A DNA stretch of 41,402 bases from Candidatus Limnocylindrales bacterium (GTDB lineage: Bacteria > Chloroflexota > Limnocylindria > Limnocylindrales > CSP1-4), in assembly GCA_046595595.1 (NCBI GenBank), contig JBKJOK010000345.1, positions 1 through 41,402 of the forward strand. The letters run 5' to 3'. The notes below the pieces were generated by a model. The model had not been told where the DNA came from. It did no database searches and saw only the letters and a program-made list of their open reading frames with translations. Below, in pieces: positions 7,386-34,002 of this stretch; the stretch's first letter is position 1; each line of letters opens with the position of its first letter. A program made the translations under genes and the position numbers.

Positions 7386-7389
7386 CGGG

Positions 7390-8847: not shown

Positions 8848-8876
8848 CGTCCGTTCACCGTGCGCTCACCTGGCGG

Positions 8877-12127: not shown

Positions 12128-12158
12128 GCGATCCTCCATCGCCCGTCGGGCGCAATCC

Positions 12159-12266
12159 TCATGTCCATCGTGATCGCTCCCGGCCGGCGCCGTCGCGTGA
12201 TCCGGAGGAGTACGGGACGCCGCTGCGCCGCCGGCCGGAGCGATCTGCCAGCGAACGTGGACATGA
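12159..12266 (-). ncRNA. Candidate structured cis-regulatory element in the rhaI 5' leader
   Basis: Nested inverted repeats 12159-12167/12258-12266, 12172-12189/12229-12245 and 12191-12198/12212-12219. The apical loop reads CUCCUCC in the mRNA. Confidence 0.4.
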
Positions 12267-12310
12267 CGGCAAGGTTGTCGATCACGGCTTCCGCTGCTGG
12301 CGATCCACAC

Positions 12311-12339
12311 AGGCTGACATAGGTTTCGTTTGATTGCAA
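12311..12339 (-). promoter_or_regulatory. Putative rhaI promoter
   Basis: Minus strand TTGCAA, 17 nt spacer, CAGCCT with an extended TGn, inside an AT-rich island. Confidence 0.45.
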
Positions 12340-12399
12340 TTCCTTTCTTGACATTCCATTCACGATGCGATTAGTGTGCGGCAGGCAACCAATCGAAAC
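12323..12399. promoter_or_regulatory. Putative RhaR (DeoR) operator pair
   Basis: GTTTCGTTTGATTGC (12323-12337) and GCAACCAATCGAAAC (12385-12399) are inverted copies with 13/15 identity, each overlapping or adjacent to one divergent promoter. Confidence 0.55.
12348..12377 (+). promoter_or_regulatory. Putative sigma70 promoter of the regulator-ABC operon
   Basis: Perfect TTGACA (12348-12353), 18 nt spacer, TAGTGT (12372-12377). Confidence 0.6.
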
Positions 12400-12453
12400 T
12401 CAATTGTTGCCGGTTCGAGCCCGCCATCCCCGATCCGCCCCGAAGGAGCGTCC

Positions 12454-13332
12454 TTGCCCGGTTCCGCGAGCGGCTCGCCGAAGGATGTCTTTGCGCGAGA
12501 ACGTCAGGACCACATCGCCCGCCTCGTCGAAGAGCACGGCCGTGCCCGTGTCGCCGATCTGGCCGCCCGGTTCGCAGTGTCGACGGTCACGATCCGCAAG
12601 GACCTGGTGATCCTCGAGGCCGGCCACCGACTCGTCCGGGCTCATGGCGGCGCGATCGCGGCGGATCGCAGCCGGGCGGAGCTCTCATTCGACATCCGCG
12701 AGCGCCTCCAGGCCGACGAGAAGGTCCAGATCGGAGCGGCCGCCGCGGCCTTGGTCCACGACGGCGAAAGCATCGTGATGGACGCCAGCACGACCGCCCT
12801 GTCCGTCGCTCGCCACCTGAAGACGAAGGGCGGCTGGAGCCAGCTCACGATCATCACGAACGGCCTCCGGATCGCAAGCGAGCTGGCCGGCCATCCCGGG
12901 ATCACCGTCCTGATGCTCGGCGGCCGGGTTCGTTGGGAGGCCCTGTCGGTCGTCGGCCAGCTGGGCGACGGCCTGTTCGACCGGATCAACGTCCAGACCG
13001 CGTTCCTCGGCGCAGCCGGCTTCACCGTCGAGTCGGGCCTGTCGGACGCCACCGACGAGGAGGCCCAGATCAAGCGCTCGATGGTCGCCGCCGCCCGCGA
13101 GGTCATCGCGATCGTCGACCACACGAAGTGGGAGCGGGCCGCGTTCGCCACCTTCTGCCCGACCGACAAGATCGCCATCGTCCTGACCGACGCCGCGGCC
13201 CCGGCGGGCATGGTCGCCGACCTGGCTCAGCGGAACATCGATGTGCGCCTCGTCGACGGGACGAACACGGACGGCGATGGGCGGCGCTCGCGCGGCTCCG
13301 ACGAGCTCGATCCCTCGAGGTCCCGGGCGTGA
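12454..13332 (+). CDS. rhaR: DeoR/GlpR-family transcriptional regulator of the rhamnose locus
   Basis: VSTVTIRKDL HTH, RAHGGA, MDASTT, TIITNG and VDHTKW motifs. AAGGAG lies 5 nt before TTG 12454. Confidence 0.88.
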   Translation: MPGSASGSPKDVFARERQDHIARLVEEHGRARVADLAARFAVSTVTIRKDLVILEAGHRLVRAHGGAIAADRSRAELSFDIRERLQADEKVQIGAAAAALVHDGESIVMDASTTALSVARHLKTKGGWSQLTIITNGLRIASELAGHPGITVLMLGGRVRWEALSVVGQLGDGLFDRINVQTAFLGAAGFTVESGLSDATDEEAQIKRSMVAAAREVIAIVDHTKWERAAFATFCPTDKIAIVLTDAAAPAGMVADLAQRNIDVRLVDGTNTDGDGRRSRGSDELDPSRSRA

Positions 13333-14912
13333 CCCCCCACGAGCCGCCGGCCGGGGCGGCCACCGCAGCCGCGCCCCGGGCGGAGCTGCGCGGAATCTCC
13401 AAGCGCTTCCTCGCCACCCAGGCCCTCGACGGCGTCTCGATCGAGCTGTTGCCGGGCGAGGTCCATGCCCTCGTCGGCGAGAACGGCGCCGGGAAGAGCA
13501 CGCTCGTCAAGATCCTGGCCGGCATCCATCAGCCGGACAGCGGTGAGATCCTCCTCGACGGCGAGCCGATCCAGATCGCCGGCCCGGCCCGCGCCCGGGC
13601 GCTCGGGATCGCCGTCGTCCACCAGGAACCGCGCCTGTTCCCGGATCTGACCGTCGCCGAGAACGTCTTCATCGGCCATGCCCCGTCCGGCCGGTTCGGC
13701 GCGATCGACTGGGGCTCGACCCGGCGCTCGGCGCAGACCCTCTTCGACCAGCTCGGCGTCCAGTTCGACGTCGGCGCGCCGGTTCGCGGCCTGTCGATGG
13801 CCGATCAGCAGCTGATCGAGATCGCCAAGTCCCTGTCGGTCGAGGCACGCGTCCTCATCCTCGACGAGCCGACGGCGTCGCTGTCGGCCCACGAGGTCGA
13901 GCGCCTGTTCACGATCGTCCGCCGCTTGCGCGAGCGCGGCGTCTCGATCCTGTTCGTCAGCCATCGCCTCGACGAGGTCTTTGCCCTGTGCGACCGGGCA
14001 ACCGTCTTCCGCGACGGTCGCCACGTGATCACGACCGAGACCGCGACGCTGACCACCGCGGACCTGGTCCGGCACATGGTCGGACGGGCCGTCTCCCTCT
14101 TCCCGAAGGTCGAGACGCCGGTCGGCGACGTGCTCCTCGAAGTCGACCACCTGACCCGGGCGGGCGCCTTCCGCGACATCTCGTTCACCGTGCGCGCCGG
14201 CGAGATCGTCGGCTTCGCCGGGCTGGTCGGAGCCGGCCGGACCGAGGTCGCCCGCGTCCTGTTCGGTATCGACCGACGCGATTCCGGCGAGGTCCGCCTG
14301 GGCGGCGTGGCGGTGTCGTACGCGAGCCCGTCGGAGGCGATGCACGGCGGCATCGCCTATCTCCCCGAGGACCGTCACCAGGAGGGTCTCGTCCTCGATT
14401 TCACGATCGCCCAGAACGTGACCCTGCCGATCCTGCCGCGCCTCTTCCCGCGGCTCCTGGTTCGGGCGGCGCGCGAGCGCGAGGTCGCCAACGAGTACAC
14501 GAAGCAGTTCAACGTCCGGATGACCGGCGTGGACCAGCTCGTCGGGGCCCTGTCGGGTGGCAACCAGCAGAAGGTCGTCCTGGCCAAGTGGCTGGCCTCG
14601 AAGCCGCGCGTGTTGATCCTCGACGAGCCGACTCGCGGGATCGACATCGGGGCCAAGGTCGAGGTCCACCGGATCATCGGCGAGCTCGCCGCGGCCGGTC
14701 TCGGGATCGTCCTGATCTCGAGCGACCTGCCAGAGGTCCTCGCGATGTCCGACCGGATCCTCGTCCTCCACGAAGGCCGCCTGACCGCCGAGATCCCCCG
14801 TGATCGGGCCACCGAGGAGCGGGTGATGTTCGCCGCGACCGGCAGTCAGCCCGGGACGGGCGATGCCGACGCGCCGATGGCACCGGCGCCGGGGGGCGGC
14901 GGACATGGTTGA
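13329..14912 (+). CDS. rhaT: Sugar ABC transporter ATP-binding protein (CUT2, double NBD)
   Basis: GENGAGKST, LDEPTASL, LSGGNQQKV and LDEPTRGID motifs. GTGA overlap with the regulator. Confidence 0.93.
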   Translation: MTPHEPPAGAATAAAPRAELRGISKRFLATQALDGVSIELLPGEVHALVGENGAGKSTLVKILAGIHQPDSGEILLDGEPIQIAGPARARALGIAVVHQEPRLFPDLTVAENVFIGHAPSGRFGAIDWGSTRRSAQTLFDQLGVQFDVGAPVRGLSMADQQLIEIAKSLSVEARVLILDEPTASLSAHEVERLFTIVRRLRERGVSILFVSHRLDEVFALCDRATVFRDGRHVITTETATLTTADLVRHMVGRAVSLFPKVETPVGDVLLEVDHLTRAGAFRDISFTVRAGEIVGFAGLVGAGRTEVARVLFGIDRRDSGEVRLGGVAVSYASPSEAMHGGIAYLPEDRHQEGLVLDFTIAQNVTLPILPRLFPRLLVRAAREREVANEYTKQFNVRMTGVDQLVGALSGGNQQKVVLAKWLASKPRVLILDEPTRGIDIGAKVEVHRIIGELAAAGLGIVLISSDLPEVLAMSDRILVLHEGRLTAEIPRDRATEERVMFAATGSQPGTGDADAPMAPAPGGGGHG

Positions 14913-15930
14913 TGGCGTCGTGACGATCGCTCCTGCGACCGGCAACGCGCGGCGCTGGCTCATGGCCGCGGCCCGCCAGCGCGAGCTGACCCTCGTCGCG
15001 ATCATGTTCGTCGTGGGCGGACTCGTCTCGATCTCCGCACCCCAGTTCCTGACCGCCTCCAACCTGAGCCAGGTTGCCGTGCTCGCGGCCGTGACGGCGG
15101 TGGCCGCGATCGGCGAAGCGCTCGTGATCATCACGCGCAACGTCGATCTGTCGGTCGAGGCGATGATCGGCCTCGTCGCCTACGTGGTCGCGGTCACGCT
15201 CGAGAGCCAGACCCTGAACTCCCCGGCCGCGATCCTCGTCGGGCTCCTGCTCGGCCTCGTCCTCGGGATGATCAACGGCTTCATCATCGCGTTCCTCCGG
15301 GTGCCCGCGATCGTCGCGACCCTCGGTACGCTGAGCGTCTTCCGCGGGATCGACTACTTCATCGCCGGCAGCCACCAGGTCCCGGTCGCCGGCCTGCCCC
15401 AGGGCTTCACCGACCCCGCCCGCGGCGACATCCTCGGGATCCCGATCTTCGTCCTGATCTCGGTCGCGGTCGTCACCGCCGGGATGTTCGTCCTGCGTTA
15501 CAGCCGGTTCGGCCGGCAGCTCTACGCGGTCGGCAGCAATCCCGAGGCCGCAGCGATCCTGGGCATCCCCTCGAAGCGCGTCGTCTTCACCGCCTTCGCC
15601 CTGTGCGGCCTGCTGTCCGGCGCGGCCGGGGTGATGTGGGTCATGGAGTTCGGCACGATCAACGGCACGGCCGCGACCGGCGCGGGCCTTGCGATCGTGG
15701 CCGCGGTCGTCGTCGGTGGGGTGAACATCTTCGGCGGCTCGGGCACGCTCGCCGGGGCCGCGATCGGCGCCCTGTTCCTCGGGTTCATCGCGAACGCCCT
15801 GATCCTCGTCGGGCTGTCGCAGTTCTGGCTCCAGGCGATCTACGGCGTGGTGATCCTCGCGGCGGTCGCCGCCGACGCCCTGATCCTGCGTCGCATGCGA
15901 CGCGCCTCGTCGCACCGGGCGAGCCGATGA
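14905..15930 (+). CDS. rhaP: Sugar ABC transporter permease (RbsC family)
   Basis: NVDLSV, PAIVATLGT, GRQLYAVGSNPEAA and AVVVGGVNIFGGSG motifs. Confidence 0.9.
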   Translation: MVDGVVTIAPATGNARRWLMAAARQRELTLVAIMFVVGGLVSISAPQFLTASNLSQVAVLAAVTAVAAIGEALVIITRNVDLSVEAMIGLVAYVVAVTLESQTLNSPAAILVGLLLGLVLGMINGFIIAFLRVPAIVATLGTLSVFRGIDYFIAGSHQVPVAGLPQGFTDPARGDILGIPIFVLISVAVVTAGMFVLRYSRFGRQLYAVGSNPEAAAILGIPSKRVVFTAFALCGLLSGAAGVMWVMEFGTINGTAATGAGLAIVAAVVVGGVNIFGGSGTLAGAAIGALFLGFIANALILVGLSQFWLQAIYGVVILAAVAADALILRRMRRASSHRASR

Positions 15931-16979
15931 CCGTCGCCCGCGCGACCCGTTCCGGCCGGCCCGCCTGGGGGCGGTTCGTCCGCTGGGAGACGCTCCTGAT
16001 CGTCGCCCTGCTCGGACTGATCGTCGCCGGGACGGCCCTGTCGCCGTTCTTCCTGACCGCCGGCAACTTCGCCAACCTGATCGCCGCCCTCATGGAGGTC
16101 GCGATCATGGCCCTGCCGATGACCCTGATCATCATCGCTGCCGAGATCGACCTGTCCGTCGAATCGATGGCGGGACTCGCCAGCGCGGTCCTCGGCTTCC
16201 TGTGGGCGGCCGGCGTGCCGCTCGAGGCCGCGATCCCGATCGTGCTCCTGGTCGGCGCCCTGGGCGGTCTGCTCAACGGCCTGCTCATCGCCAAGGCGGG
16301 ACTGCCGTCCCTCGTCGTGACCCTCGGGACGCTTGCCCTCTTCCGGGGCCTCGCCCTGATCGTCCTTGGGCCGCGCGGCGTCAGCGACTTCCCGACGGCC
16401 TTCACCGAATTCGGCTTCGGCCACGTGCCCGGGACGCTGATCCCGTGGCCGTTCGTGGTCTTCGTGGCCCTCGCGGCCGGCCTGGGCGTCGTGCTCCATC
16501 GAACATGGATCGGGCGGCAGGTCTACGCCGTCGGCCGGAGCCAGGGCGCGGCGCGCTTCTCGGGCGTCCGCGTGACCCGCCTCAAGATCGCGCTGTTCGT
16601 CCTTTCAGGGCTGATTGCCGCCCTTGCCGGGATCATCCTGACGGCTCGCCTGTCGAGCGCCCGGGCCGACGCCGCCCAGGGCATGACCCTGACGGTCGTG
16701 ACCGTCGTGCTCCTCGGCGGCGTGAACATCTTCGGCGGACGGGGTTCGATCCCGGGCGTGGCCCTCGCGGTCATCGCCGTGGCGGTCATGCAGAACGCCC
16801 TCCGCCTTGCCAGCGTGACGGTCGAGGTCCAGAGCATCGCCCTCGGGCTGCTCCTGATCCTCTCGGTCGTCATCCCCAACTCCGCTCACCAGGCCAAGTC
16901 GGCCATCGATCGAGTCCGTGGAGGACGGCCTCCGCCGGTCGACTCGGTTCGCCGTGGTGAGGTAGGACGCGCACGATGA
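15927..16979 (+). CDS. rhaQ: Sugar ABC transporter permease (RbsC family)
   Basis: EIDLSV, PSLVVTLGT, GRQVYAVG and VVLLGGVNIFGGRG motifs. ATGA overlap. Confidence 0.9.
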   Translation: MTVARATRSGRPAWGRFVRWETLLIVALLGLIVAGTALSPFFLTAGNFANLIAALMEVAIMALPMTLIIIAAEIDLSVESMAGLASAVLGFLWAAGVPLEAAIPIVLLVGALGGLLNGLLIAKAGLPSLVVTLGTLALFRGLALIVLGPRGVSDFPTAFTEFGFGHVPGTLIPWPFVVFVALAAGLGVVLHRTWIGRQVYAVGRSQGAARFSGVRVTRLKIALFVLSGLIAALAGIILTARLSSARADAAQGMTLTVVTVVLLGGVNIFGGRGSIPGVALAVIAVAVMQNALRLASVTVEVQSIALGLLLILSVVIPNSAHQAKSAIDRVRGGRPPPVDSVRRGEVGRAR

Positions 16980-16992
16980 GGAGGACTCAGCC

Positions 16993-18051
16993 TTGAAACT
17001 CAGATCAGCCGGGCGAACGATCGCCCTGGCAACGGTCACCGTCATGCTGTTCGCAGCATGCGGCGCGGCCGCCACCCCGAAGCCGGCCACGTCGACCGCC
17101 CCGGGCGGCTCCGGCGCTGCGGCGGCGATCACGGTCGGCTACCTGCCGAAGGACATCGTCAACCAGTACTTCGCCGCCGCCAAGACCGGCGTCGACAAGG
17201 CGGCCGGCGAGACCGGCGGCAAGGTCATCCAGGTCGGCCCGAACGAGGCCAAGGCCGACCTCCAGATCCCGTTCATCACCGACCTCACGACCCAGAAGGT
17301 CAACGCGATCATCATCTCGGCCGACGGCAAGGATGAGGTCGCTCCGGCCCTGAAGGCGGCGATGGCCGCCGGCATCAAGGTCGTCGGCTTCGACTCGAGC
17401 CCCGCGGTCGGGGCGTATGACGTGTTCGTCAACCAGGTTGACTTCAGCGGTGTCGGCGTGAACCTCGCCGACTGGGCCTGCGAGCTCGCGCCGAGCTGCA
17501 CGGGCGAGATCGCGATCCTCTCGGCGGCGGCCACAGCCACCAACCAGAACGCGTGGATCGAGCTGATGAAGACGACCCTCGCCACCGACAAGTACAAGGG
17601 CCTCAAGCTCGTCGACACCGTCTACGGCGACGACGACGCGACCAAGAGCACCCAGCAGGCGCAGGCCCTCCTGACCAAGTACCCGAACCTCAAGGTCATC
17701 GTCGCCCCGACCACCGTCGGCATCCTGGCCGGCGCCCAGGTCGTCCAGAAGGCCGGCAAGTCGTCCACGGTCAAGGTCACCGGCCTCGGCTTCCCGAACG
17801 ACATGAAGGCGTTCGTCAAGGACGGCACGTCCCCGGTCTTCGGCCTGTGGAGCGTTCCGGACCTCGGCTACCTCTCGTACATCGTGGCTCAGAAGCTCAT
17901 CGCCGGAGAGATCACGGGCAAGGAAGGAGAGACGTTCACGGTCAAGGGCTTGAACAAGGACCAGCCCTACACGATCGGCAAGGACGGGGTCGTCATCCTC
18001 GGCCCAGCCTTCCGGTTCGACTCCACGAACGTCGACCAGTTCGACTTCTAG
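16993..18051 (+). CDS. rhaS: Rhamnose ABC transporter substrate-binding lipoprotein
   Basis: Lipobox LFAAC, LPKDIVNQYF, ATNQNAWI, YGDDD, PTTVGI, TGLG and LWSVPDLGY motifs. GAGGAGG RBS before TTG. Confidence 0.9.
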   Translation: MKLRSAGRTIALATVTVMLFAACGAAATPKPATSTAPGGSGAAAAITVGYLPKDIVNQYFAAAKTGVDKAAGETGGKVIQVGPNEAKADLQIPFITDLTTQKVNAIIISADGKDEVAPALKAAMAAGIKVVGFDSSPAVGAYDVFVNQVDFSGVGVNLADWACELAPSCTGEIAILSAAATATNQNAWIELMKTTLATDKYKGLKLVDTVYGDDDATKSTQQAQALLTKYPNLKVIVAPTTVGILAGAQVVQKAGKSSTVKVTGLGFPNDMKAFVKDGTSPVFGLWSVPDLGYLSYIVAQKLIAGEITGKEGETFTVKGLNKDQPYTIGKDGVVILGPAFRFDSTNVDQFDF

Positions 18052-18074
18052 CTCCTCGTTTTCGCGAACGCGGA

Positions 18075-18109
18075 GCGGCGCCCCGGAGGCTCGGCCTTCG
18101 GGGCGCCGC
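18075..18109 (+). terminator. Strong hairpin after the binding-protein gene (terminator or mRNA-stabilising stem)
   Basis: GCGGCGCCCCGGAGGC-tcg-GCCTTCGGGGCGCCGC: 16-bp stem with one G-U pair and no U-tract. Confidence 0.65.
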
Positions 18110-18126
18110 GATTCATTGGAGGTGCC

Positions 18127-18441
18127 ATGGAACGGGTGGGCTTCACGATGCGCCTGCGGCCCGGGGCCGAGGCGGAGTACCGGCGCCGCCACGCGGCGGT
18201 CTGGCCGGACATGCTCGACGCGCTCCGGACGGCCGGCGCCCGCGACTACTCGATCTTCCTCGACGGGGACCGGCTGTTCGCCTGCCTCGACGTCGAGGAC
18301 TTCGACGCCTTCCGCATGGCGATGGCCGCAACCGAGGTCAACGATCGCTGGCAGGCTGAGATGGCCGGGCTGATCGATCCGCTCACGGACCCAGCGACCG
18401 GATTCCACCGGCGACTCGAGGAGATCTTCCACCTCGACTGA
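18127..18441 (+). CDS. rhaM: L-rhamnose mutarotase
   Basis: EYRRRHAAVWP, DYSIFL, RWQAEM and EEIFHLD motifs. GGAGG RBS. Confidence 0.93.
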   Translation: MERVGFTMRLRPGAEAEYRRRHAAVWPDMLDALRTAGARDYSIFLDGDRLFACLDVEDFDAFRMAMAATEVNDRWQAEMAGLIDPLTDPATGFHRRLEEIFHLD

Positions 18442-25279: not shown

Positions 25280-26142
25280 CGCCGGATCCCGTCGAGGACG
25301 ATCGCGTACGTGGCCGGCGTCGCCGGCCGGACGCCGAGCTGGATGTGATCGGCGCCCTCGGCCGCCCAGGTCCGCAGCGCGTCGGCGATCGCGCCCGTGT
25401 CGAGGGGTAGGGCGTTCGGTCCGGGCTCGTCCTCGACCACGTCGACCCCGACCGTGATCCCGATCGAGCGTGGATCCCGGCCGGCGGCTGAACACGCCGC
25501 AAGCAGATCGCGATGGCGGCCTCGGTAGCGCTCGTCCGGGAGGCCGAACCAGGCGGTCTGCCACAGGTCCGCGAGCTCGACCGTGAGGCGGAGCATGCGC
25601 TCGCCCTTGGCCGCGACCAGGATCGGCAGGTCCGGCCGGATCGGGGCCGGCAGGATCGCCGCCTCGCGGACCTGCTGGTACGGACCCTCGTGGGTGATCC
25701 GCTCGCCACGAACGAGCGGGGCGGTGATCCGCAGGGCGTCCTCGAACCGCCCGACCCGATGGTCGAACGGGTGGCCGAACGCGGTGTACTCGGGCTCGTG
25801 CCAGCCGCAGCCCAGGCCGAGGATCAGCCGGCCGCCCGACACCTCGTCGGCCGTGACGGCCATCTTCGCGAGAAGTCCGGCGGGACGGAACGATGTCGAC
25901 AGGACGAGCGTGCCGAGTTCCACCCGGCTCGTCGTCGCGGCGAGCGCGCTGAGCAAGGTCCACGGCTCGACAATCCCGGTCTCGGCGCCGATCGCTGCCC
26001 CGTCCTCGCGATGGAAGAAGTGGTCGATCAGCCACAGGCTGTCGGCGCCGCCGTCCTCCGCCTGGCGGGACAGCGCCGAGATCTCTCGCCAGGTCTCGCC
26101 GCCGTCGGAGGCTGCCTGGGGCAGGAGCAATCCGATCTTCAT
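25267..26142 (-). CDS. LLM-class flavin/F420-dependent oxidoreductase
   Basis: DSLWLIDHF, EPWTLLSALAATTSRVELGTLV and DEVSGGRLILGLGCGW motifs. Confidence 0.92.
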   Translation of the reverse strand: MKIGLLLPQAASDGGETWREISALSRQAEDGGADSLWLIDHFFHREDGAAIGAETGIVEPWTLLSALAATTSRVELGTLVLSTSFRPAGLLAKMAVTADEVSGGRLILGLGCGWHEPEYTAFGHPFDHRVGRFEDALRITAPLVRGERITHEGPYQQVREAAILPAPIRPDLPILVAAKGERMLRLTVELADLWQTAWFGLPDERYRGRHRDLLAACSAAGRDPRSIGITVGVDVVEDEPGPNALPLDTGAIADALRTWAAEGADHIQLGVRPATPATYAIVLDGIRRYRG

Positions 26143-26204
26143 CGCTCGATACTAGGGAACTGATGACGGTGGCGATGAACGACGCATGTGTCGCCCGACC
26201 GACA

Positions 26205-26969
26205 TCAGCCGCGGCGGACCTGGCGCATGCTGAGCACGATCGGACGGCCGGCCCCGTCAACGAGGCGCCAGCGGACGTCGAAGCGGTCGTCGCGGCCATC
26301 CGCGAGGAGCGCGGCTACCTCGGCGGGCGTCGCGTCCGCACCGAGCTCGGCCAGCCGTCGGCCGAGGGCAATCGTCGCCACCGCTGGGACGTCGCCGAGG
26401 AGGTCGCGCCGGGCGACTCCGGCCGCGTCGCCGACGCCGGCCTGCTCGAGCCGGGCGATCAGGCGCCGGGCACGACCCCGCCCGGCGGCGTCGAGGTCGG
26501 CCAGCCAGGCGGGCCCAGCCGGTGCATCGGGCTCGGCACGGTTCGCACGGGTCGCACGTGTCGCCCGCACTGCCGGGATCGGCGCGGTGTCGCCCGCGGC
26601 GGCGGGCCGCACCCCTGCCCCGCCGCGTCCCGTCGCGGCCGTCGCAACCTTGTCGGGCGCCGACGCCGTCTCGGCCGCCGGCCGGCTCTTCCGCTGCGCA
26701 ATCCGCCCGACCAGCGGGGACTCGGCCGGCGCGCTCGTGCGGACGCCGGAGATCGCTGTTTTCGCGTTCGTCAGGCTCGAGTACGGCCCACGGACCAGGG
26801 CCATGCCGAAGTCGTCGGTCTGCTCGGCGTCGACGACCACCCAGGTGCCTGACTGCGGCTCGATCGTGAACCGCTCGTCGCGGGTCTGCCAGCGCCCGCC
26901 GCCGAGCCGCTTCAGCGGTGCGTCGTCGGAATCGTCGGCCGGTCTGGGAGCAGCCTTTGCGCGGGGCAT
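26205..26969 (-). CDS. Hypothetical protein (two domains joined by an Ala/Arg-rich linker)
   Basis: Ordered N-terminal region GGGRWQTRDERFTIEPQSGTWVVVD. Fills the gap between genes. TATCGT lies 6 nt upstream of ATG. Confidence 0.7.
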   Translation of the reverse strand: MPRAKAAPRPADDSDDAPLKRLGGGRWQTRDERFTIEPQSGTWVVVDAEQTDDFGMALVRGPYSSLTNAKTAISGVRTSAPAESPLVGRIAQRKSRPAAETASAPDKVATAATGRGGAGVRPAAAGDTAPIPAVRATRATRANRAEPDAPAGPAWLADLDAAGRGRARRLIARLEQAGVGDAAGVARRDLLGDVPAVATIALGRRLAELGADATPAEVAALLADGRDDRFDVRWRLVDGAGRPIVLSMRQVRRG

Positions 26970-26993
26970 GCGCGGACGATACCGCGCCGGGCG

Positions 26994-28409
26994 TCAGCGG
27001 CGTGCCGGCAGCCCCGCCGACGCCACGACCATCGCGATCGCCACGAGGGCCATGATCCCGAAGCCGAGCGTCACCCCGTCCGCGGTCACGGCCCCACCGA
27101 GGACCGCACCCGCGAGACTCGCCCCGACGACGCCGCCGAGGTAGCGGCCCGTGTAGTACGTCCCGGCAGCCATCCCGATCCGGTCCGGGCCGATGGCATC
27201 GAATGCGGCCGCCTGGCGGGGTGAGCCGGCGAGGCCCATGCCCGCCCCGACGAGCGCCAGGATCAGGCCCAGCCCGATCGCCGATGCGACCGTCGAGAGC
27301 TGCCACAGGATCGCCAGGCCGGCCAGGGCCACGACGGCGCCCAGGACCGCCGGCCCGCGCCGACCCACCCGGTCCGAGAGGCGGCCGCCGAACGGCGCGG
27401 TGATCGCCCCGAGGGCGCTGATGCCGAGCAGGACGAGGCCGCTCGTCTCCGGGCTGCCGCGCTGGAGGACCTCGACGAGGAGCGGGACGATGACCAGCGT
27501 GCCGTGGAGGATGATCGTGGCGCCGAAGACGCCGGCGACCGCCGCCGCGAACGGACGCGACGCGAACAGGCGTGGATCGACGGCCGGGTGCTCGGTCCGC
27601 AGCTCGAACCGGACGAATGCCGCAAGAAGGAGCGGGACCGCGACGGCGGCCACGAGCGCGATCGGGCCGTCGCGGCCGGCGCGCAACGCCACCAGGAGGG
27701 CGACCAGAAGCGCCGCGAGCAGCGCCAGGCCGGGACCGTCGATCGGCCGCCGGGCGGCGACCTCGCCGCGCGCCCGCGCCGCCACGACTGGGTCCGGCCG
27801 GAGGCCCACCGCCAGCGCCGCAACGACCGCCAGCGGGGCGGCAAGCAGGAACATGGCGCGCCAGTCGAAGGCGCCGACGATCAGTCCCCCGACGAGCGGC
27901 CCGAGGGCGGCGCTCGTCGAGACGAGCATGTCGAACAGCCCGAACGCCGCTCCGCGCCGGGCCGGTGGGGCAAGCGCCCGGACGAGGGCAACCGAGCTGG
28001 TCGAGACGAGGGCGCCGCTGGCGGCCTGGAGAACGCGGGCGAGGATCAGGACGCCGAACGCGGGCGCGAGGGCGGCGCCGAGCGAGGCGACACCGAACCC
28101 GGCGACACCGACCAGGAACGCTCGACGGTGACCGAAGCGGTCCCCGACGCTGCCGCTGATCGGGACGGCCACCGCCACCGCACCGAGATAGACGGTCACC
28201 AGCGTCGCCGCGGCGTCGGGCGGAACCGCGAACGCGGCCATCACGCTCGGCAAGCCGACGGCGAGCATCGTCGAGTTGAGGGGCACGAGAATCGCCCCGC
28301 TGGCGATCCCGAGCATCATCGGCGACAGCAGGCGGCCCGGGAGGTGGGTCGGCCCGCGCTCGTCGGGCGGTGGCGGGCTCTCGGAGGCGCTCCCCTGGCC
28401 GATGGTCAC
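26994..28409 (-). CDS. MFS transporter (DHA2-like, about 14 TM)
   Basis: PLNSTMLAVGLP, GSVGDRFGHRR motif A, ARVLQA, GPLVGG and GRLSDRVGRR. GTGA overlap with the upstream gene. Confidence 0.92.
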   Translation of the reverse strand: MTIGQGSASESPPPPDERGPTHLPGRLLSPMMLGIASGAILVPLNSTMLAVGLPSVMAAFAVPPDAAATLVTVYLGAVAVAVPISGSVGDRFGHRRAFLVGVAGFGVASLGAALAPAFGVLILARVLQAASGALVSTSSVALVRALAPPARRGAAFGLFDMLVSTSAALGPLVGGLIVGAFDWRAMFLLAAPLAVVAALAVGLRPDPVVAARARGEVAARRPIDGPGLALLAALLVALLVALRAGRDGPIALVAAVAVPLLLAAFVRFELRTEHPAVDPRLFASRPFAAAVAGVFGATIILHGTLVIVPLLVEVLQRGSPETSGLVLLGISALGAITAPFGGRLSDRVGRRGPAVLGAVVALAGLAILWQLSTVASAIGLGLILALVGAGMGLAGSPRQAAAFDAIGPDRIGMAAGTYYTGRYLGGVVGASLAGAVLGGAVTADGVTLGFGIMALVAIAMVVASAGLPARR

Positions 28410-30034
28410 CCCAGCCTGACCAGGCCGGTCGTTCCGTCGATCTCGATCAGCTGGCCGTCGGCGATCCGGGTCGTCGCGTCACCGGTCCCGACGACCGCCG
28501 CCAGCCCGAATTCACGGGCCACGACCGCGGCGTGCGACAGGACACCACCGGCATCGGTCACGAACCCGCCCGCGATCGAGAAGAGCGGAACCCAGCCTGG
28601 GTTCGATGCGGTCGCGATCACGATGTCGCCCGGCTGGACGCGCTCGAAGTCGTCAGGCCCGTGGACGACCCGGGCCGGCCCGCGAACGATCCCGGTCGAG
28701 GCACCGGTCCCCTTGAGCGTCCGGTCGTCGACCGGGTCGAACCGGGCCCCGTCGAAGCGGTCGGCCTTCGCGCCGGGCTGTGACTCCGACACTCGGCCGA
28801 CCTTGCGTGGCGGGCGGATCGTCGCCTGCGCCGCATGCCGCGCCCGCCGCTCCGCGATGAGCGCGCGTCGATCGAGCGGGTCGCGGATCAGGTCCGCGAT
28901 CTCACTCCGGCGGAGATAGGCCACGTCGTCCGGGCCGGCGAGGACGTCGTCCCGCGCGAGGCGACGGCCCACCCGTCGGCTGAACCGGCGCAGCCGATCG
29001 CCGACCATCCGGTCGATCCAGTAGTTGTGACCCTCGGTCAGCGGTCCGATCTCGCGCGCAGTCGCCAGCAGGGCTTCGAACTCGGCGAGCTCGTCCGGCC
29101 GATCGGCGAGGATCGCGCGAACGGCGTCGGCGCGGGCTTCGGCCGCTGCCGCTCGCCGTGGCCAGCGCTCCTCCGCCCGAGTCACCGGTCGTCCGATGCG
29201 ACGTCCGATCTCGACGAGGAGCGGTCGCGGGTCCTCGTGCCACGACGGGTCCATCAGGTCTTCCCGGACGTGACCGAGGTGGCCGTGACGGGCGAGGAAC
29301 GCCTCGACGGCCGCCGCGAACGGTGGGCCGCCTGGCAGGCCGGCGATCGTGGCCAGATCGGGCGGTGGGTGTGCGCGCAACCGGGCCGCGACCGCCGTCG
29401 AACGACCGGCCTCGGCGGCGACCGCCTCGAGCTCGATCTCGACGTCGCGCAGCTCCGGGATGGTGCCGGCCACGAGCTCCAGCGCCTCCGCTGCCGTCCC
29501 ACCCGCGACGAGGGCCTCGTACCGGTCGGCGAGGTCGTCGAGGACCTGGTACGGACCAGTGATCACATGAAAGTGGATCTGCCATGCGCGCTCGACCAGC
29601 GTCCAGACCCGCTCCCAGGCCGCGACCAGCTCGTCGCGCGGCTCGTCGCCGGAGACGGCGTCGATCTCCCGGTACATCGATTGCAGCTCGGGAAGGGCCC
29701 TCCGCCAGTAGGCAGCCGTGCCCGGGATCAAGGTTCGGCGCATCTCCGGCGCCCGGTCCATCAGCGCCTCGTGTTGATCGGCCGGGGCGTCGATCTTCAG
29801 GGCGAAGTAGGTGTAGCCGTTCCAGACGCGAACGGGGATGGTCGCGGGCAGGCCCATGGCCCGATAGCGGTAGACGATGCCGGCCATGAGCGCCGCCACG
29901 TAGTCCTCGCTGAGGGGCGGGATGGCCCGCGGCATGTGCATGTCGTCCCATTCCCACTCGAGCTCCTCGTCGCCCGATTCCCAGGCGATCGGGAAGTCGG
30001 CGTCGGGTTGGGCGTCAGCCGGGCGCGAGTCCAT
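28406..30034 (-). CDS. PEP-utilizing enzyme: substrate-binding helical domain plus C-terminal swivel phosphohistidine domain
   Basis: LKGTGASTGIVRGPARVV, GDIVIA...PGWVPLF and TDAGGVLSHAAVVAREFG...IDGTTG at the C-terminus. FLARHGH...WHEDP in the middle region, as in RPH-like proteins. Confidence 0.88.
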   Translation of the reverse strand: MDSRPADAQPDADFPIAWESGDEELEWEWDDMHMPRAIPPLSEDYVAALMAGIVYRYRAMGLPATIPVRVWNGYTYFALKIDAPADQHEALMDRAPEMRRTLIPGTAAYWRRALPELQSMYREIDAVSGDEPRDELVAAWERVWTLVERAWQIHFHVITGPYQVLDDLADRYEALVAGGTAAEALELVAGTIPELRDVEIELEAVAAEAGRSTAVAARLRAHPPPDLATIAGLPGGPPFAAAVEAFLARHGHLGHVREDLMDPSWHEDPRPLLVEIGRRIGRPVTRAEERWPRRAAAAEARADAVRAILADRPDELAEFEALLATAREIGPLTEGHNYWIDRMVGDRLRRFSRRVGRRLARDDVLAGPDDVAYLRRSEIADLIRDPLDRRALIAERRARHAAQATIRPPRKVGRVSESQPGAKADRFDGARFDPVDDRTLKGTGASTGIVRGPARVVHGPDDFERVQPGDIVIATASNPGWVPLFSIAGGFVTDAGGVLSHAAVVAREFGLAAVVGTGDATTRIADGQLIEIDGTTGLVRLG

Positions 30035-30041
30035 GGTCCAG

Positions 30042-31055
30042 CTACCGCGCGGTGATCGGACGGGCCTGGAGGAGCAGCCAGCGCCCGCCGGCCCGGGCCG
30101 CCTCGATGTCCACCCGGTCGCCATAGGCTTCGTCGACCGCGATGGCCAGGTCGATCAGCTCATCGAGGGCGGCCTCGTCGAGGGCCGGGCCGGTGCCCGG
30201 ATCGCGCATCTCGACGAGCCCGTCGCGGCCCAGGAAGAGGCGCGGCCCGTCCACTCCGTGGTCGCGCTCGACGACCGCGCGGGTCGCCCGGTCGACGACG
30301 ATCGTGTCCGGTGTCGCGTGACCCGAGACCATCGGCTCCCCAAGCCCTCGGATCGCCGTCACGAGGATCTGGTCGTCGCGGCCGGTCACCGGGTGGCGCG
30401 TGAAGACCACCGCCGAGGCGTCAGCCGGGACGAGGGCCTGGACCACCACGGCCATCGCGGATTCCGTGCAGGACAGTCCGCGCCGGGTCCGGTAGGCGAG
30501 CGCCGGCTGGCTCCAGAGGGATGCCCAGCAGCGCCGGACCGCGCCCTCGACTTCGCCGGGCAGGCGCCCGAGTTCCGTCTCATGGAGCCCGGCGAATGAT
30601 GCGACCACGCCGTCCTCGTCGAGCGCCGACGATCGGACGGCGAGGCGGACGGGACCGCGGATGTCCTCGCCGGATCCGCCGGCGATCGCGAGATCGTCGG
30701 CCAGGCCGCGAACGGCGGCCTCGATCGCGTCCCGGAGAGGAGGCTCCGTGGGCGTTGCCTCGAAGGCATCGATCAAGCTCCGCCGCGACACATCGTCCGG
30801 GAGAGCCGCCAGCCAGCGCCGGGCCGCCGGCTCCCGGCGGAACGTCGCCTCGAGCTGGGCGCGGAACGCCTCCGCCGTGACGCACAGCGCCGGCGGAACG
30901 GCCTGGCCAAGCCGGGTGAGCCGGTCGAGTGACGCTCCCTTGCCGCCGACCGACGCGACGCTCAGGCGCGGCCCGTCGCCGATCCGGACGACCAATCTCT
31001 CCGGGCTCGCCGTGGCGGCCGGTCGGCGGACGCTCGGAGCCTCGACGCGACGCAT
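30042..31055 (-). CDS. Stand-alone PEP/pyruvate-binding (ATP-grasp, PPDK_N) domain protein
   Basis: VGGKGASL, AVRSSALDEDG..SFAGLHET, CWASLW, MAVVVQ, GLGEPMVSG and DIE...LLQARPIT, followed by a stop. Confidence 0.9.
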   Translation of the reverse strand: MRRVEAPSVRRPAATASPERLVVRIGDGPRLSVASVGGKGASLDRLTRLGQAVPPALCVTAEAFRAQLEATFRREPAARRWLAALPDDVSRRSLIDAFEATPTEPPLRDAIEAAVRGLADDLAIAGGSGEDIRGPVRLAVRSSALDEDGVVASFAGLHETELGRLPGEVEGAVRRCWASLWSQPALAYRTRRGLSCTESAMAVVVQALVPADASAVVFTRHPVTGRDDQILVTAIRGLGEPMVSGHATPDTIVVDRATRAVVERDHGVDGPRLFLGRDGLVEMRDPGTGPALDEAALDELIDLAIAVDEAYGDRVDIEAARAGGRWLLLQARPITAR

Positions 31056-31124
31056 GTGGCCGGGACTGTAGCAAACGGATCCGGCGAGAATGTCACCGTC
31101 CGACAGAGGCCGCGGCGGACGCCT

Positions 31125-31460
31125 TCAGCCGGCGAAGGGCAGGAACTCTCCGTCCGGGTCGCGAAGAGCCGGCGTGACCGCGACGATCGATGCGCGGGCC
31201 ATCGGCCCGAAGACATGCGGGTAGATCCGGCCGGGATCCTCCACGTTCCAGCGGCTGCCGACCTGATCCAGGTCGATCGTGAGGACCACGAACGAGCTCG
31301 GGTCCTCTCGATAGTGCCGGTTGGCCGTCGCGACCATTGCCGCGGCTCCGTCCGTGCAGTGGATGAAGCCCTCCGCGTCGAGCGACGGCGCACCGAGCGG
31401 CTCGACCGGGTCGGCGGCCGCCCACCAGTCGGCTGGCGTCAGGTGGTAGGTCAGGCGCAT
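31125..31460 (-). CDS. DUF952 domain protein
   Basis: YHL...W, SLDAEGFIHCT and YPHVFGPM motifs. Confidence 0.88.
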   Translation of the reverse strand: MRLTYHLTPADWWAAADPVEPLGAPSLDAEGFIHCTDGAAAMVATANRHYREDPSSFVVLTIDLDQVGSRWNVEDPGRIYPHVFGPMARASIVAVTPALRDPDGEFLPFAG

Positions 31461-31479
31461 CGCGGAGCGCCGCTCGCCG

Positions 31480-33396
31480 TCACGACCCGGCGACGAAGGC
31501 GCGATCGGGACTGACCCAGCCGCGGTCGAGCGCGACCTGGATGACCGTCGGGCTGTCGTTGGCCAGGGCCTGGCGAAGGGCCTGCTCGAACGCGGCGTCG
31601 GTTTCGACCCGGATCCCGCGCGCACCGCAGGCCCGGGCGATCGCGGCGAAGTCGATCGGCCCGAGGTCGGTCGCGATCGCGCCGTCCGCTCCCCCGCCCC
31701 GCCGATCCTGGTGCATTCGGATCGTCCCGTAGCGCTCGTTGTCGAAGACGACCGCGATGACGTTCGCCTTCTCGCGGACCGCCGTCTCGAGCTCGGCCAT
31801 CGTCATCGCGAAGCCGCCGTCGCCGGCGATCGCCACGACCGCTCGATCGCGGTGGACGAGCGCGGCCGCGATCGCGGCTGGCAGGCCGTAGCCCATCGCG
31901 CCCGAGGTCGGGCCGAGGAACGTGCCCGGCCGCCGGAACCGGAAGTGGCGGGCGACCCACAGCCCGAAGTTGCCAGCATCGGTGGCAACGATCGCGTCGT
32001 CGGGGAGCAGCCGGCGGAGGGTCGCGACGGTATGCCCGGGATGGGCGCCCGGGCCAGTCCACGGGTCGTCGTCGGGCTGGCTGGCGACTTCCCACGCGGC
32101 TCGATCGGCGAGGTTCAGTGCCTGCCGGCGATCTGCGACCGCGGCCTCGAGGACCCCTTCCTGGAGACGGGCGACGGCCGCGCGGAGGAACGCTCGAGCG
32201 TCGGCGACGATCGTTCGCGCCGGCGACGGCAGGCCCGCGCGGCCGCTGAGCGGCTCGACGTCGACGTGCATCCACGCCTGGCCGTCGGCCGGAATCGCGT
32301 AGCCGAACGAGGTGATCTCCGACAGGCGGCAGCCGAGCACGAGGATCGCGTCTGACCGCTCGAGGCGCTCGCGGACGACCGCCGGGCTCCCGTAGCCGGC
32401 CATGCCGAGGTACAGCGGATGGTCGTTCGAGACGACGTCGCCGCGCCGCCAGCCGGCGATGACCGGGACTCGCAGCAGCTCGGCCAGCTTCACCAGGTCG
32501 GTCGACGTCCGGGCGCGCAGAACGCCGCCGCCGGCGAGGAAAACGGGCCGCTCGGCTGAGGCGAGGAACCGGAGCACGGCGGCGACATCGGCAGGTTCCG
32601 GCCGGGCGGGCGCCGGACGCGAGGTGTCGAGCTGGGTGCCCGCCGGCAGCTCCTCGTCGAGGATGTCCTCGGGCAGCGACAGCAGGACCGGGCCCGGTCG
32701 GCCGGTCAGGGCGGCCCGGACGGCATCACCGACCAGGCGCGGAACGTCGGCCACGGCAGTGAGCTCGACGGCATGGGCGGCCAGGCCGCCGATCGTGCCG
32801 GCCTGATCGATCTCCTGGAACGCCTCCCGGCCTCGGAACGCCCGATCGACCTGGCCGACCAGCGCGAACATCGGGGCCGAGTCCTGGCGGGCCGTGTGGA
32901 TGCCGATCGCGAGGTTGGCGGCGCCGACGGCGCGGGTCCCGATCGCGGCGGCCGGACGACCGGTCAGCTGGCCGTGCGCTTCGGCCATGAACGCGGCGCC
33001 CCCCTCGTGACGGGTCGCGACGACGCGGATGCCGGCGGCCTTGAGCCCTTCGAGCAGGCCGAGGAAGCTTTCGCCGGGCACGGTGAACGCATACCGGACA
33101 CCGGCGACGCGGAGAGCGTCGGCAATGAACCGGCCCACGGTTCGCGGGCCCTCGAGCTCGGCTGTGGGCTCCAGCTCGGGCTCGGGCTGCGGCTCGGGTG
33201 CGTCGGGCTCGGGCTGCGGCTCGCGTGCGTCGGGCTCGGGCTGCGGCTCGGGTGCGTCGGGCTCGGGTGTGGGCTCCGGCTCGGGCTCGGCAGCGGGCTC
33301 CGGAACTCGAGGCGCGATCGGCTCCAGCGCGGAGGCCGGGTCCGTGCGCTCGTCGAGGTCCGCGTCGGGGCTCGCCTCCGTGCGCTCGTCGGCCAT
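31480..33396 (-). CDS. Thiamine diphosphate-dependent enzyme (acetolactate synthase large subunit-like) with acidic Pro-rich N-terminal extension
   Basis: VPGESFL, RHEGGAAFMAEA, AFQEID, RPGPV, DAGNF, GAMGYGLPAA and GDGG...N ThDP motif. Confidence 0.9.
   Translation of the reverse strand: MADERTEASPDADLDERTDPASALEPIAPRVPEPAAEPEPEPTPEPDAPEPQPEPDAREPQPEPDAPEPQPEPELEPTAELEGPRTVGRFIADALRVAGVRYAFTVPGESFLGLLEGLKAAGIRVVATRHEGGAAFMAEAHGQLTGRPAAAIGTRAVGAANLAIGIHTARQDSAPMFALVGQVDRAFRGREAFQEIDQAGTIGGLAAHAVELTAVADVPRLVGDAVRAALTGRPGPVLLSLPEDILDEELPAGTQLDTSRPAPARPEPADVAAVLRFLASAERPVFLAGGGVLRARTSTDLVKLAELLRVPVIAGWRRGDVVSNDHPLYLGMAGYGSPAVVRERLERSDAILVLGCRLSEITSFGYAIPADGQAWMHVDVEPLSGRAGLPSPARTIVADARAFLRAAVARLQEGVLEAAVADRRQALNLADRAAWEVASQPDDDPWTGPGAHPGHTVATLRRLLPDDAIVATDAGNFGLWVARHFRFRRPGTFLGPTSGAMGYGLPAAIAAALVHRDRAVVAIAGDGGFAMTMAELETAVREKANVIAVVFDNERYGTIRMHQDRRGGGADGAIATDLGPIDFAAIARACGARGIRVETDAAFEQALRQALANDSPTVIQVALDRGWVSPDRAFVAGS
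33178..33267. repeat. 27-bp in-frame tandem repeat (about 3.3 copies)
   Basis: GGGCTCGGGCTGCGGCTCG(G/C)GTGCGTC at 33178, 33205 and 33232. Encodes DA(P/R)EPQPEP. Confidence 0.9.
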
Positions 33397-33500
33397 CAGG
33401 GCGAGGTGGGCGCGGCAACGACGCCGACGATCAAGCCGGCCACGACGATGACGGCGACGACGGCCATGATCAGGCGGGCGTACCGGGTTCCGGGCATCAT
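33396..33500 (-). CDS. Single-TM micro-protein (about 34 aa)
   Basis: MMPGTRYARLIMAVVAVIVVAGLIVGVVAAPTSP. Starts 7 nt after the yajQ stop, and its TGA overlaps the next ATG (TGATG). Confidence 0.65.
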   Translation of the reverse strand: MMPGTRYARLIMAVVAVIVVAGLIVGVVAAPTSP

Positions 33501-33507
33501 CGGCTGG

Positions 33508-34002
33508 CTACCGGTAGTTCTCGAACTGGAGCGGAACCGGGACGTCTTCCAGCTCGCGCAGCCGGCCGATGACCTTCTGGAGCTCGTCCCGGCTCTTGCC
33601 CGAGACCCGGACCGCATCGCCCTGGATCTGCGGCTTGACCTTCGGGAACTCCTCGCGGATCAGCTTGCTCAGCTTCTTCGCCAGCTCGTCGTTCAGGCCG
33701 CGCCGGAGAGTGATCGCCTGGCGTACCTTGTTGCCACCGGACGGCTCGACCTTGCCCCAGTCGAAGATCTTCAGCGACAGGTTGCGGCGGACCGCCTTCG
33801 ATTCGATCAGGTCCTTGATCGCGGCGGCCCTGTGCTCGTCGTCGGTCACGAGGACGAGCTCGTCCTTGGACTGCTCGAGTTCGACGGTCACGCCCTTGAA
33901 GTCGAACCGCTGGCCGACCTCGCGGCGGACCTGGTCGAGGGCGTTGCGCAACTCCTGCTCGTCGAAGTCGCTGACGACGTCGAAGGACACGTCTCCGGCC
34001 AT
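33508..34002 (-). CDS. yajQ: YajQ-family nucleotide/c-di-GMP-binding protein
   Basis: SFDVVS, RFDFKG, QIQGDAVRVSGKSRDELQ and LQFENYR motifs. GGAGG RBS. Confidence 0.95.
   Translation of the reverse strand: MAGDVSFDVVSDFDEQELRNALDQVRREVGQRFDFKGVTVELEQSKDELVLVTDDEHRAAAIKDLIESKAVRRNLSLKIFDWGKVEPSGGNKVRQAITLRRGLNDELAKKLSKLIREEFPKVKPQIQGDAVRVSGKSRDELQKVIGRLRELEDVPVPLQFENYR

Follow-up and report, generated by a model that had tools for sequence, protein, structure and literature searches.

What does a small-molecule dikinase do when it is split over two genes, stands beside a transporter and lies apart from any pathway? The question is raised by three genes in a contig from a Candidatus Limnocylindrales bacterium of the phylum Chloroflexota (assembly GCA_046595595.1, contig JBKJOK010000345.1). 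The stretch of DNA analysed, referred to here as the window, covers positions 1 to 41,402 of this contig, 41,402 nucleotides (nt) in all. The genes encode a stand-alone ATP-grasp subunit, a substrate-binding subunit that ends in a phospho-His swivel domain, and a transporter of the major-facilitator superfamily (MFS). The first two very probably form a two-component dikinase of the rifampin phosphotransferase (RPH) type. With the transporter, they make up a portable accessory cassette, and the function to which we lean is inactivation and export of some soil compound. The parts of the cassette are the following.

30042..31055, minus strand: ATP-grasp (nucleotide-binding) subunit, 337 amino acids (aa), from the list of open reading frames (ORFs) and the Pfam family PPDK_N
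28406..30034, minus strand: substrate-binding helical domain with C-terminal phospho-His swivel, 542 aa, from the Pfam PEP-utilizers family, Rph_4th in homologues and an AF2 model
26994..28409, minus strand: DHA2-like major-facilitator transporter, 471 aa, from MFS_1 and about 14 hydrophobic segments
30035..30041, minus strand: 7-nt spacer between the ATP-grasp TAG and the swivel-gene ATG, from the sequence, and unchanged in contigs of four studies
28406..28409, minus strand: GTGA start/stop overlap of the swivel and MFS genes, from the sequence
31056..31124, minus strand: 69-nt stretch that separates the DUF952 stop from the ATP-grasp start, the left edge of the cassette, from the sequence and an empty-site alignment

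All three genes are intact. The ATP-grasp gene stops at a TAG (30044-30042) and the swivel gene starts at an ATG (30034-30032) in a different reading frame. The longest frame of the swivel gene (28406..30124) encodes 572 aa. The ATG at 30034 gives 542 aa, which is the length of the closest homologues (542-545 aa, 100% coverage). An earlier account of this DNA, made from the letters alone (the sequence-only reading), had described three tightly linked genes with a 7-nt gap and then a GTGA overlap, and the ORF list and junction sequence bear this out.

The 337-aa ATP-grasp subunit matches PPDK_N at 1.3e-54 over model positions 2-311 of 328. Its sequence matches in the PDB include HpeI (9GOJ, E 2.5e-28) and RPH-Lm's ATP-grasp domain (5HV6, E 9e-25), and archaeal PEP synthases are matched as well. 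In RPH-Lm, Lys22, Arg117, and Thr136 are implicated in the first phosphotransfer, and Glu297Ala is one of the ATP-site variants described (PMC4844700). All four residues are kept in the window protein as K39, R141, T160, and E318. With its nucleotide-site residues intact, the protein has what is expected of the stand-alone ATP-grasp component of a two-component dikinase. The best NCBIfam model for this subunit is RedH, with 188 bits against a cut-off of 1350, and PigC scores 165 against 1300.

The 542-aa subunit is composed of a helical substrate domain (about residues 1-430) and a C-terminal swivel domain. The latter matches the Pfam PEP-utilizers mobile domain (4e-22, residues 497-567 of the 572-aa frame). 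The protein contains the motif TDAGGVLSHAAVVAREFG. Its catalytic-His motif, TDAGGVLSH, fits T/SxxGGxxxH with a Ser preceding the His, and His501 is invariant in two alignments. Homologues carry PF00391 together with PF27448 (Rph_4th, Pfam 38.1). The AF2 model of the protein (pLDDT 89.5) is matched over its whole length by RPH-Lm 5FBT (Foldseek E 1.9e-23, TMq 0.75, 21% identity). This is the sole whole-length match, the other PDB structures matching the swivel domain only. At the sequence level, RPH-Lm 5FBS is matched at E 4e-27 over residues 204-540. Read across both subunits, the domain order is ATP-grasp, substrate, His, which is the RPH order, as had been proposed from the sequence.

A second conserved site is suggested by a loop of the substrate domain, T333-E334-x-H336-N337-Y338-W339-x-D341-R342, that is invariant in the family. 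The loop reads T-E-G-H-N-Y in the window and aligns, in an uncertain register, with the RPH loop of Arg666, Glu667, and Lys670. These RPH residues belong to a loop required for the second phosphotransfer, to rifampin (PMC4844700). The Glu is kept and the basic residues are replaced, which suggests a conserved second active site that would serve a different acceptor.

Pfam finds no PEP/pyruvate TIM-barrel family in the swivel protein, whose chain stops about 40 residues past His501. PEP synthase and PPDK are ruled out, as there is no TIM barrel after the swivel. The Pfam families, the RPH-Lm fold match, and the missing barrel all agree with the sequence-only reading, which had called a split dikinase of the RPH type and not PEP synthase or PPDK. 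Closer placement relies on NCBIfam scores, which stand in for a phylogeny with named RPH, PigC, PpsA, and CreH references. The RPH model NF041857 gives 143.9 and 146.2 bits (cut-off 999) and aligns over residues 116-540 of the swivel subunit. NF000283 gives 111 and 93 bits (cut-off 1700), and the swivel subunit scores 116 bits for RedH and 95 for PigC (cut-offs 1350 and 1300). The PRK08296 models reach 108-164 bits against cut-offs of 578-730. The best of these (PRK08296.1-5, 164 against 578) aligns over residues 298-540 only, and the equation of PRK08296 with the CreH/PpsA group is unconfirmed, NF006153 being above cut-off in one control genome. An RPH-type two-component small-molecule dikinase is the class that we assign with high confidence.

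Distant relatives of the substrate+swivel unit are found in a different setting. P0218 (2289 aa), P0249 (1971 aa), and P0252 (4906 aa) carry it at the C-terminus of non-ribosomal peptide synthetase (NRPS) termination modules. These units share 27-29% identity with the window protein, the modules are of the form C-A-(MT)-T-TE, and PPDK_N is absent from the same chain. The fusions hint that some family members may act on non-ribosomal peptide products, and they fit a family acting on secondary-metabolite-like molecules. Another dikinase architecture of the lineage is apparently encoded at L086:1315-3468 (G001) and L087:130-2232 (G002). These proteins of about 700 aa have PPDK_N and a swivel, no TIM barrel, and an extra C-terminal region of about 250 aa without a family. 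Their genes adjoin molybdopterin-cofactor-binding (MoCoBD) genes.

The two-gene split is natural and not an assembly slip. Near-identical DNA, with half or more of the sampled words, is present in soil metagenomes of at least five studies, one of which may be the source of the window. Four runs, each from a different study (X3, X4, X5, and X9), yielded contigs that bridge 30032-30044 and have the same TAG and spacer. Every difference counted in the bridging contigs lies elsewhere, and no indel is reported at the TAG/7-nt junction. At the GTGA overlap, no difference is listed in contigs X3 record 1 and X5 record 20.

The sizes of related proteins point the same way. Homologues of the 542-aa protein number 660 at E<=0.001, and among the 120 listed, 119 are 511-589 aa long and one is 813 aa (P0097). 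With the substrate domain alone, E<=0.001 admits 1255 cluster representatives, and the stricter limits of 1e-10 and 1e-30 leave 450 and 70. The best 150 of the 1255 comprise 83 of stand-alone size (480-660 aa), 16 of fused size (661-1000 aa), 5 longer than 1000 aa, and 46 that are shorter and probably fragments. Close-clade loci were drawn from species-representative genomes, and 54 of the 59 are assessable for the ATP-grasp gene. It is split from the swivel gene in 40, with varied frames and spacings, fused to it in-frame in 2, and absent from 12; the remaining 5 are unassessable at a contig end.

The split is almost certainly neither an artefact of assembly nor the product of a recent nonsense change within a single-chain RPH-like gene. 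Fused forms do exist, namely the 2 close loci, the 813-aa P0097, and 16 of 19 distant-clade loci. Nevertheless, the same TAG and 7-nt spacer recur in contigs of four studies, the genes are out of frame here, the related split loci differ in frame and spacing, and stand-alone size is the commonest among the representatives. The sequence-only reading had named an error or recent nonsense change at the TAG (30042-30044) as what would undo it, and the four-study contigs and the 40 split loci among 54 speak against such a change.

The fused sister clade includes proteins in which ATP-grasp is joined to two tandem substrate+swivel copies. These are found at L063, L067, L068, L069, L073, and L074 (e.g., L067:2466-6608) and in P0121 (1333 aa). 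Each of the sister-clade proteins is one stop-free frame of about 1,230-1,550 aa with a convergent MFS gene downstream, and the tandem copies form separate sister groups in the tree. In these proteins, one ATP-grasp would serve two acceptor modules.

The third gene encodes a 471-aa protein that matches MFS_1 (Pfam) at 1.1e-49. A Kyte-Doolittle hydropathy scan, a crude method, gives about 14 separate hydrophobic segments. Its best-scoring models are DHA2 efflux families, and the best NCBIfam model is DHA2 EmrB (TIGR00711), with 197.1 bits against a cut-off of 230.2. In 57 of the 57 close-clade loci that can be assessed (2 more end too early), the swivel gene is immediately followed on the same strand by the MFS gene, within about 100 nt or overlapping. 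In the sister clade (34-40% identity), 13 of 15 assessable loci have an adjacent MFS gene in convergent orientation. The tight coupling to a DHA2-like MFS that the sequence-only reading proposed is therefore upheld by the swivel-MFS adjacency. Conservation of the whole trio, which it had also proposed to examine, holds for the swivel-MFS pair and fails for the ATP-grasp gene as a constant member. A complex prediction for the swivel protein with MFS residues 26-471 (31-row alignments each) scored 0.00 and is given no weight either way.

The trio is a patchy, self-contained, portable accessory cassette. The gene order of the window is DUF520-TPP enzyme-DUF952-trio-unk254-luciferase-like-PALP, and L003, L004, L005, L007, and L027 share this arrangement. 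In these loci, the dikinase subunits (52-63% identity) are less conserved than the flanks (TPP enzyme, 77-87%). The same flanks (DUF520-TPP-DUF952-unk254-lux) are found in three congeneric genomes, with DUF952 directly beside unk254 and no trio. The absence is a clean indel of about 4.1 kb, and the empty-site alignment places the start of the cassette after the DUF952 stop. G094 and G064 have the trio elsewhere in the genome. The edges of the cassette showed neither direct repeats nor mobile-element genes.

Other loci have mutually unrelated neighbours (BNR, ACT-domain, hemerythrin, LytR_cpsA_psr, MerR-TOBE, DUF72, and many others). In scans of 17 + 112 + 52 flanking ORFs, no gene for catabolism, biosynthesis, or regulation was seen repeatedly next to the cassette, and only local synteny blocks turned up (LytR_cpsA_psr, hemerythrin, MerR-TOBE, ACT, and DUF72). 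The lack of catabolic partner genes noticed in the window is thus general to the contexts scanned. A full-length strong match (>670 bits) occurs in only 12 of 201 sampled genomes of the class, about 35 more have the fused sister clade, and many others have only partial paralogue matches. Unpublished genomes are counted here, namely G164 (one of the 12), G111, and G072, and G156, G117, and G101 are in the sample as well. A literature search on Limnocylindria phosphotransferases or dikinases gave no account of the cassette among the papers listed. A patchy, self-contained module fits defence or detoxification better than core or pathway-embedded metabolism.

Two side observations concern these contexts. 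A DUF72 gene lies just past the MFS gene in two close loci (L009:8229-9365 and L028:8392-9393) and six distant ones (L063, L067, L068, L073, L074, and L075), which may be residual synteny or a weak association. Eight contigs (L007, L022, L023, L034, L035, L044, L056, and L071) are assigned to groups other than Limnocylindria, namely Verrucomicrobiia, Patescibacteria, Steroidobacteraceae, Acidobacteriota, Eisenbacteria, Dormiibacterota, Armatimonadetes, or Saccharimonadales. L007 has the whole gene order of the window, with 87% identity in the TPP enzyme. Some of the eight are probably mis-binned Limnocylindria rather than gene transfers.

The loci without an ATP-grasp gene have unrelated ORFs upstream. 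At L029, a BNR gene stands immediately beside the swivel gene, whereas the near relative L009 has the ATP-grasp gene between the two. No degraded ATP-grasp remnant was found in the 13 grasp-less loci (the 12 of the close clade and L080) when their six-frame translations were searched with a 46-sequence hidden Markov model at E<=10. Their swivel genes have open frames and an intact His motif. In a quick maximum-likelihood tree of swivel proteins (SH-aLRT support; L024 dropped, L025 not included), grasp-less loci are scattered over six or more separate positions, among them L028 and L029 next to the grasp-bearing L009, and a deep three-member clade (L051/L053/L056). In five grasp-less genomes, PPDK_N is present only in a PPDK-size frame and in a PPDK_N+swivel paralogue of about 700 aa that has 29% identity to the window ATP-grasp subunit. 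Among five further grasp-less genomes, three have no PPDK_N match and two have matches only in frames of 847-906 aa.

The chemistry proposed for the window enzyme is taken from characterised homologues, namely RPH and the two-component HpeHI, CreHI, and PpsAB, for which this mechanism is described (PMC12167813). ATP would bind the 337-aa ATP-grasp subunit, and His501 would attack the beta-phosphate to give a pyrophosphorylated His. The gamma-phosphate would be lost as Pi and AMP released. The phospho-His domain would then swing back to its own helical domain and phosphorylate the bound small molecule, most likely at a hydroxyl. The MFS, which is from an exporter family, would remove the compound or its phosphorylated product. 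The balance tips slightly towards the cassette being an inactivate-and-export module for detoxification of, or resistance to, some soil compound. This is favoured by the DHA2-type exporter, the lack of pathway genes, the patchy distribution, and an enzyme that diverges faster than its neighbours.

Several points weigh against a detoxification module. What the enzyme acts on, which way the MFS transports, and the role in detoxification are inferred only; the MFS is below the DHA2 cut-off, and direction is not readable from sequence. The characterised two-component members described in PMC12167813 are all kinases of phenol catabolism, and none is a resistance enzyme. The cassette proteins stay below the cut-off of every NCBIfam model, so function is not transferable by orthology. 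In the aligned loop, in its uncertain register, the positions of Arg666 and Lys670 are not Arg or Lys, with the Glu kept. SHAAVVARE was one of the two search patterns of the locus scan, so the His motif was in part bound to appear invariant across loci. No regulator accompanies the cassette. The absence of the ATP-grasp gene beside 12 of 54 swivel genes means that a simple obligate two-subunit kinase does not explain those lineages, and no orthologous stand-alone ATP-grasp was found in 10 grasp-less genomes, which are of unknown completeness (G209 is unpublished).

Other functions have to be weighed against detoxification. As the chief competing explanation, the cassette could encode a catabolic scavenging kinase, with a phenolic or similar nutrient imported by the MFS, phospho-trapped, and metabolised by enzymes encoded elsewhere. 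The characterised two-component RPH-type dikinases all start phenolic catabolism, and phospho-trapping has been proposed for them (both as given in PMC12167813). The window ATP-grasp subunit also matches HpeI slightly better than it does RPH-Lm's ATP-grasp domain, and the host lineage is soil-dwelling. Yet the contexts examined show no recurrent carboxylase, phosphatase, oxygenase, or other gene of catabolism, the best MFS models are of efflux families, and the gene order is grasp-first, not swivel-first. The best PRK08296 model, whose identity with PpsA/CreH/HpeH is unverified, also covers less of the swivel subunit than the RPH model does. We consider scavenging rather unlikely. A biosynthetic ligase of the PigC/RedH type, which would activate a carbonyl or hydroxyl for condensation and leave export of the product to the MFS, is less credible and would be a surprise. 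It draws on RedH as the best NCBIfam match of the ATP-grasp subunit, on the PigC score, and on the NRPS fusions of distant substrate+swivel relatives. The scores are far below the cut-offs, however, no biosynthetic genes flank the cassette in the loci examined, and no prodiginine pathway genes are present.

The grasp-less loci raise an alternative of another kind, namely that the functional unit consists of the swivel protein and the MFS, with the adjacent ATP-grasp as an optional accessory. Charging would then come from a non-dedicated donor such as a paralogous ATP-grasp, or the protein would be a phospho-exchange enzyme or a phosphatase. The constancy of the swivel-MFS pair (57/57) against a missing ATP-grasp gene (12/54) speaks for it, as do the scatter of grasp-less loci over the tree, their open frames, and the lack of a grasp remnant. 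To our knowledge, there is no case of trans-charging by a foreign ATP-grasp, which weighs against it. In addition, 42 of the 54 loci keep the ATP-grasp gene, split or fused, its catalytic residues are intact in the window, and incompleteness of the metagenome-assembled genomes could hide a relocated copy. HpeH alone does carry out phosphotransfer between a phospho-substrate and a substrate (PMC12167813), which counts in favour of the idea. On balance, an optional ATP-grasp is unlikely. A bolder form of the idea, to which we give only a small chance, is that the swivel protein and MFS make up one 'phosphorylate-and-move' device, a coupling of phospho-His chemistry to transport outside the phosphotransferase system (PTS). 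Its charger would be modular, with the ATP-grasp split, fused, duplicated, or replaced in trans by another dikinase. The inactivate-and-export module remains the function that we favour for the cassette.

Expression of the cassette can be considered from the junctions and the region upstream. We infer co-transcription of the trio from the 7-nt gap, the 4-nt overlap, and the lack of terminator-like sites. A consensus scan of 26000-34000 found no sigma-70-like sites or terminators, and a promoter of the cassette is therefore only presumed. A -10-like TACAGT lies at 31070-31065, 9 nt ahead of the ATP-grasp ATG, so a leaderless start is possible. Both the ATP-grasp gene (TACAGT, 31056-31070) and the unk254 gene (TATCGT, 26970-26993) have such a hexamer 5-9 nt ahead of the ATG. 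TATCGT is conserved in G055, the sole trio-less genome whose alignment shows that site (empty sites L098 and L100). The hexamers suggest that both genes may have leaderless transcripts. The rifamycin-associated element (RAE) is a 19-bp palindrome according to the HelR preprint, and it is described only for Actinobacteria. No long palindrome was found in the 69-nt upstream region (31056-31124), and RAE absence was judged solely as absence of a 19-bp-type palindrome, not against the RAE consensus. CBS and UbiD families were not found among the window genes scanned, which are part of the window ORFs.

Elsewhere in the window, unk254 (26205-26969, minus strand) is a conserved 254-aa protein without a Pfam or NCBIfam family. 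It adjoins DUF952 in relatives with and without the cassette. A rhamnose-utilisation-like cluster lies at 5092-18438. It contains LUD and CCG (LutABC-like) genes, an FGGY kinase, a class II aldolase-SDR fusion, a DeoR regulator, parts of a sugar ABC transporter, and a RhaM mutarotase.

RPH-type dikinases are a large and mostly unexplored group, of which an antibiotic-resistance enzyme, pigment ligases, and phenol kinases are characterised. The cassette defines a distinct and widespread branch in soil Chloroflexota, always with an efflux-type transporter and never with a pathway. The constant pairing with a transporter suggests a role in detoxification or resistance. An antibiotic substrate would make the cassette a new environmental mechanism of inactivation, and a phenolic one would carry the known scavenging kinases into a new phylum and link them to a transporter. 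The split, fused, duplicated, and grasp-less versions provided by nature are material for studying how a swivelling His domain finds its partners.

In drug resistance, operons of the mph(A)-mrx type pair a drug-inactivating kinase with a membrane protein. The window cassette would resemble them in the logic of pairing an inactivating phosphotransferase with a co-transcribed membrane protein of transport type. Unlike in the cassette, the mph(A) kinase is APH-type and has an unrelated fold, and no homology is implied.

RPH-Lm (5FBS/5FBT/5FBU/5HV1) is the closest comparison in structure. It has the three modules in the same N-to-C order, its ATP-site residues are conserved in the window protein, and the whole swivel subunit superposes on its RIF-binding and swivel domains. 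In contrast to RPH-Lm, to which it has about 21% identity, the window enzyme consists of two chains, the loop reads differently, and nothing indicates a rifamycin substrate. The two chains and NCBIfam RPH scores far below cut-offs set it apart from RPH proper. The prodiginine ligases PigC and RedH share the superfamily and the domain order. They are single chains, unlike the window enzyme, which scores far below their cut-offs and has no pyrrole-pathway genes nearby.

Two-component RPH-type dikinases have already been described, namely PpsAB (Thauera), CreHI (Corynebacterium glutamicum), and HpeHI (Rhodococcus) (PMC12167813, JBC 2025). In that account, the RPH grasp domain has its homologue in one component, the RIF-binding and swivel domains of RPH have their counterpart in the other, and the catalytic His is essential. 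The characterised members share about 45% identity with each other, and no stable complex of HpeHI was detectable (PMC12167813), which bears on the word heterodimer used in the sequence-only reading. It compared the split with that of phenylphosphate synthase, but the split is not unique to PpsAB, and with the subfamily already described, the novelty is lower than was held.

The cassette enzyme shares with these systems a separate ATP-grasp subunit, an RPH-like substrate/His-swivel subunit, and the lack of a TIM barrel. By analogy, ATP would be converted to AMP and Pi with a phospho-product. As in PpsA and CreH, a Ser precedes the His in the T/SxxGGxxxH motif. The swivel subunit is divergent and, at 542 aa, shorter than HpeH (stated as 71 kDa). 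The window order is grasp and then swivel, unlike the H-I and A-B order of the known systems as taken from their gene names. Unlike PpsAB, CreHI, and HpeHI, the cassette has no catabolic neighbours, is constantly coupled to a DHA2-like MFS, and has a Chloroflexota host. What is new is the grasp-first order, the divergent substrate domain, the freedom from catabolic genes, the phyletic setting, and the fixed coupling to an efflux-type MFS.

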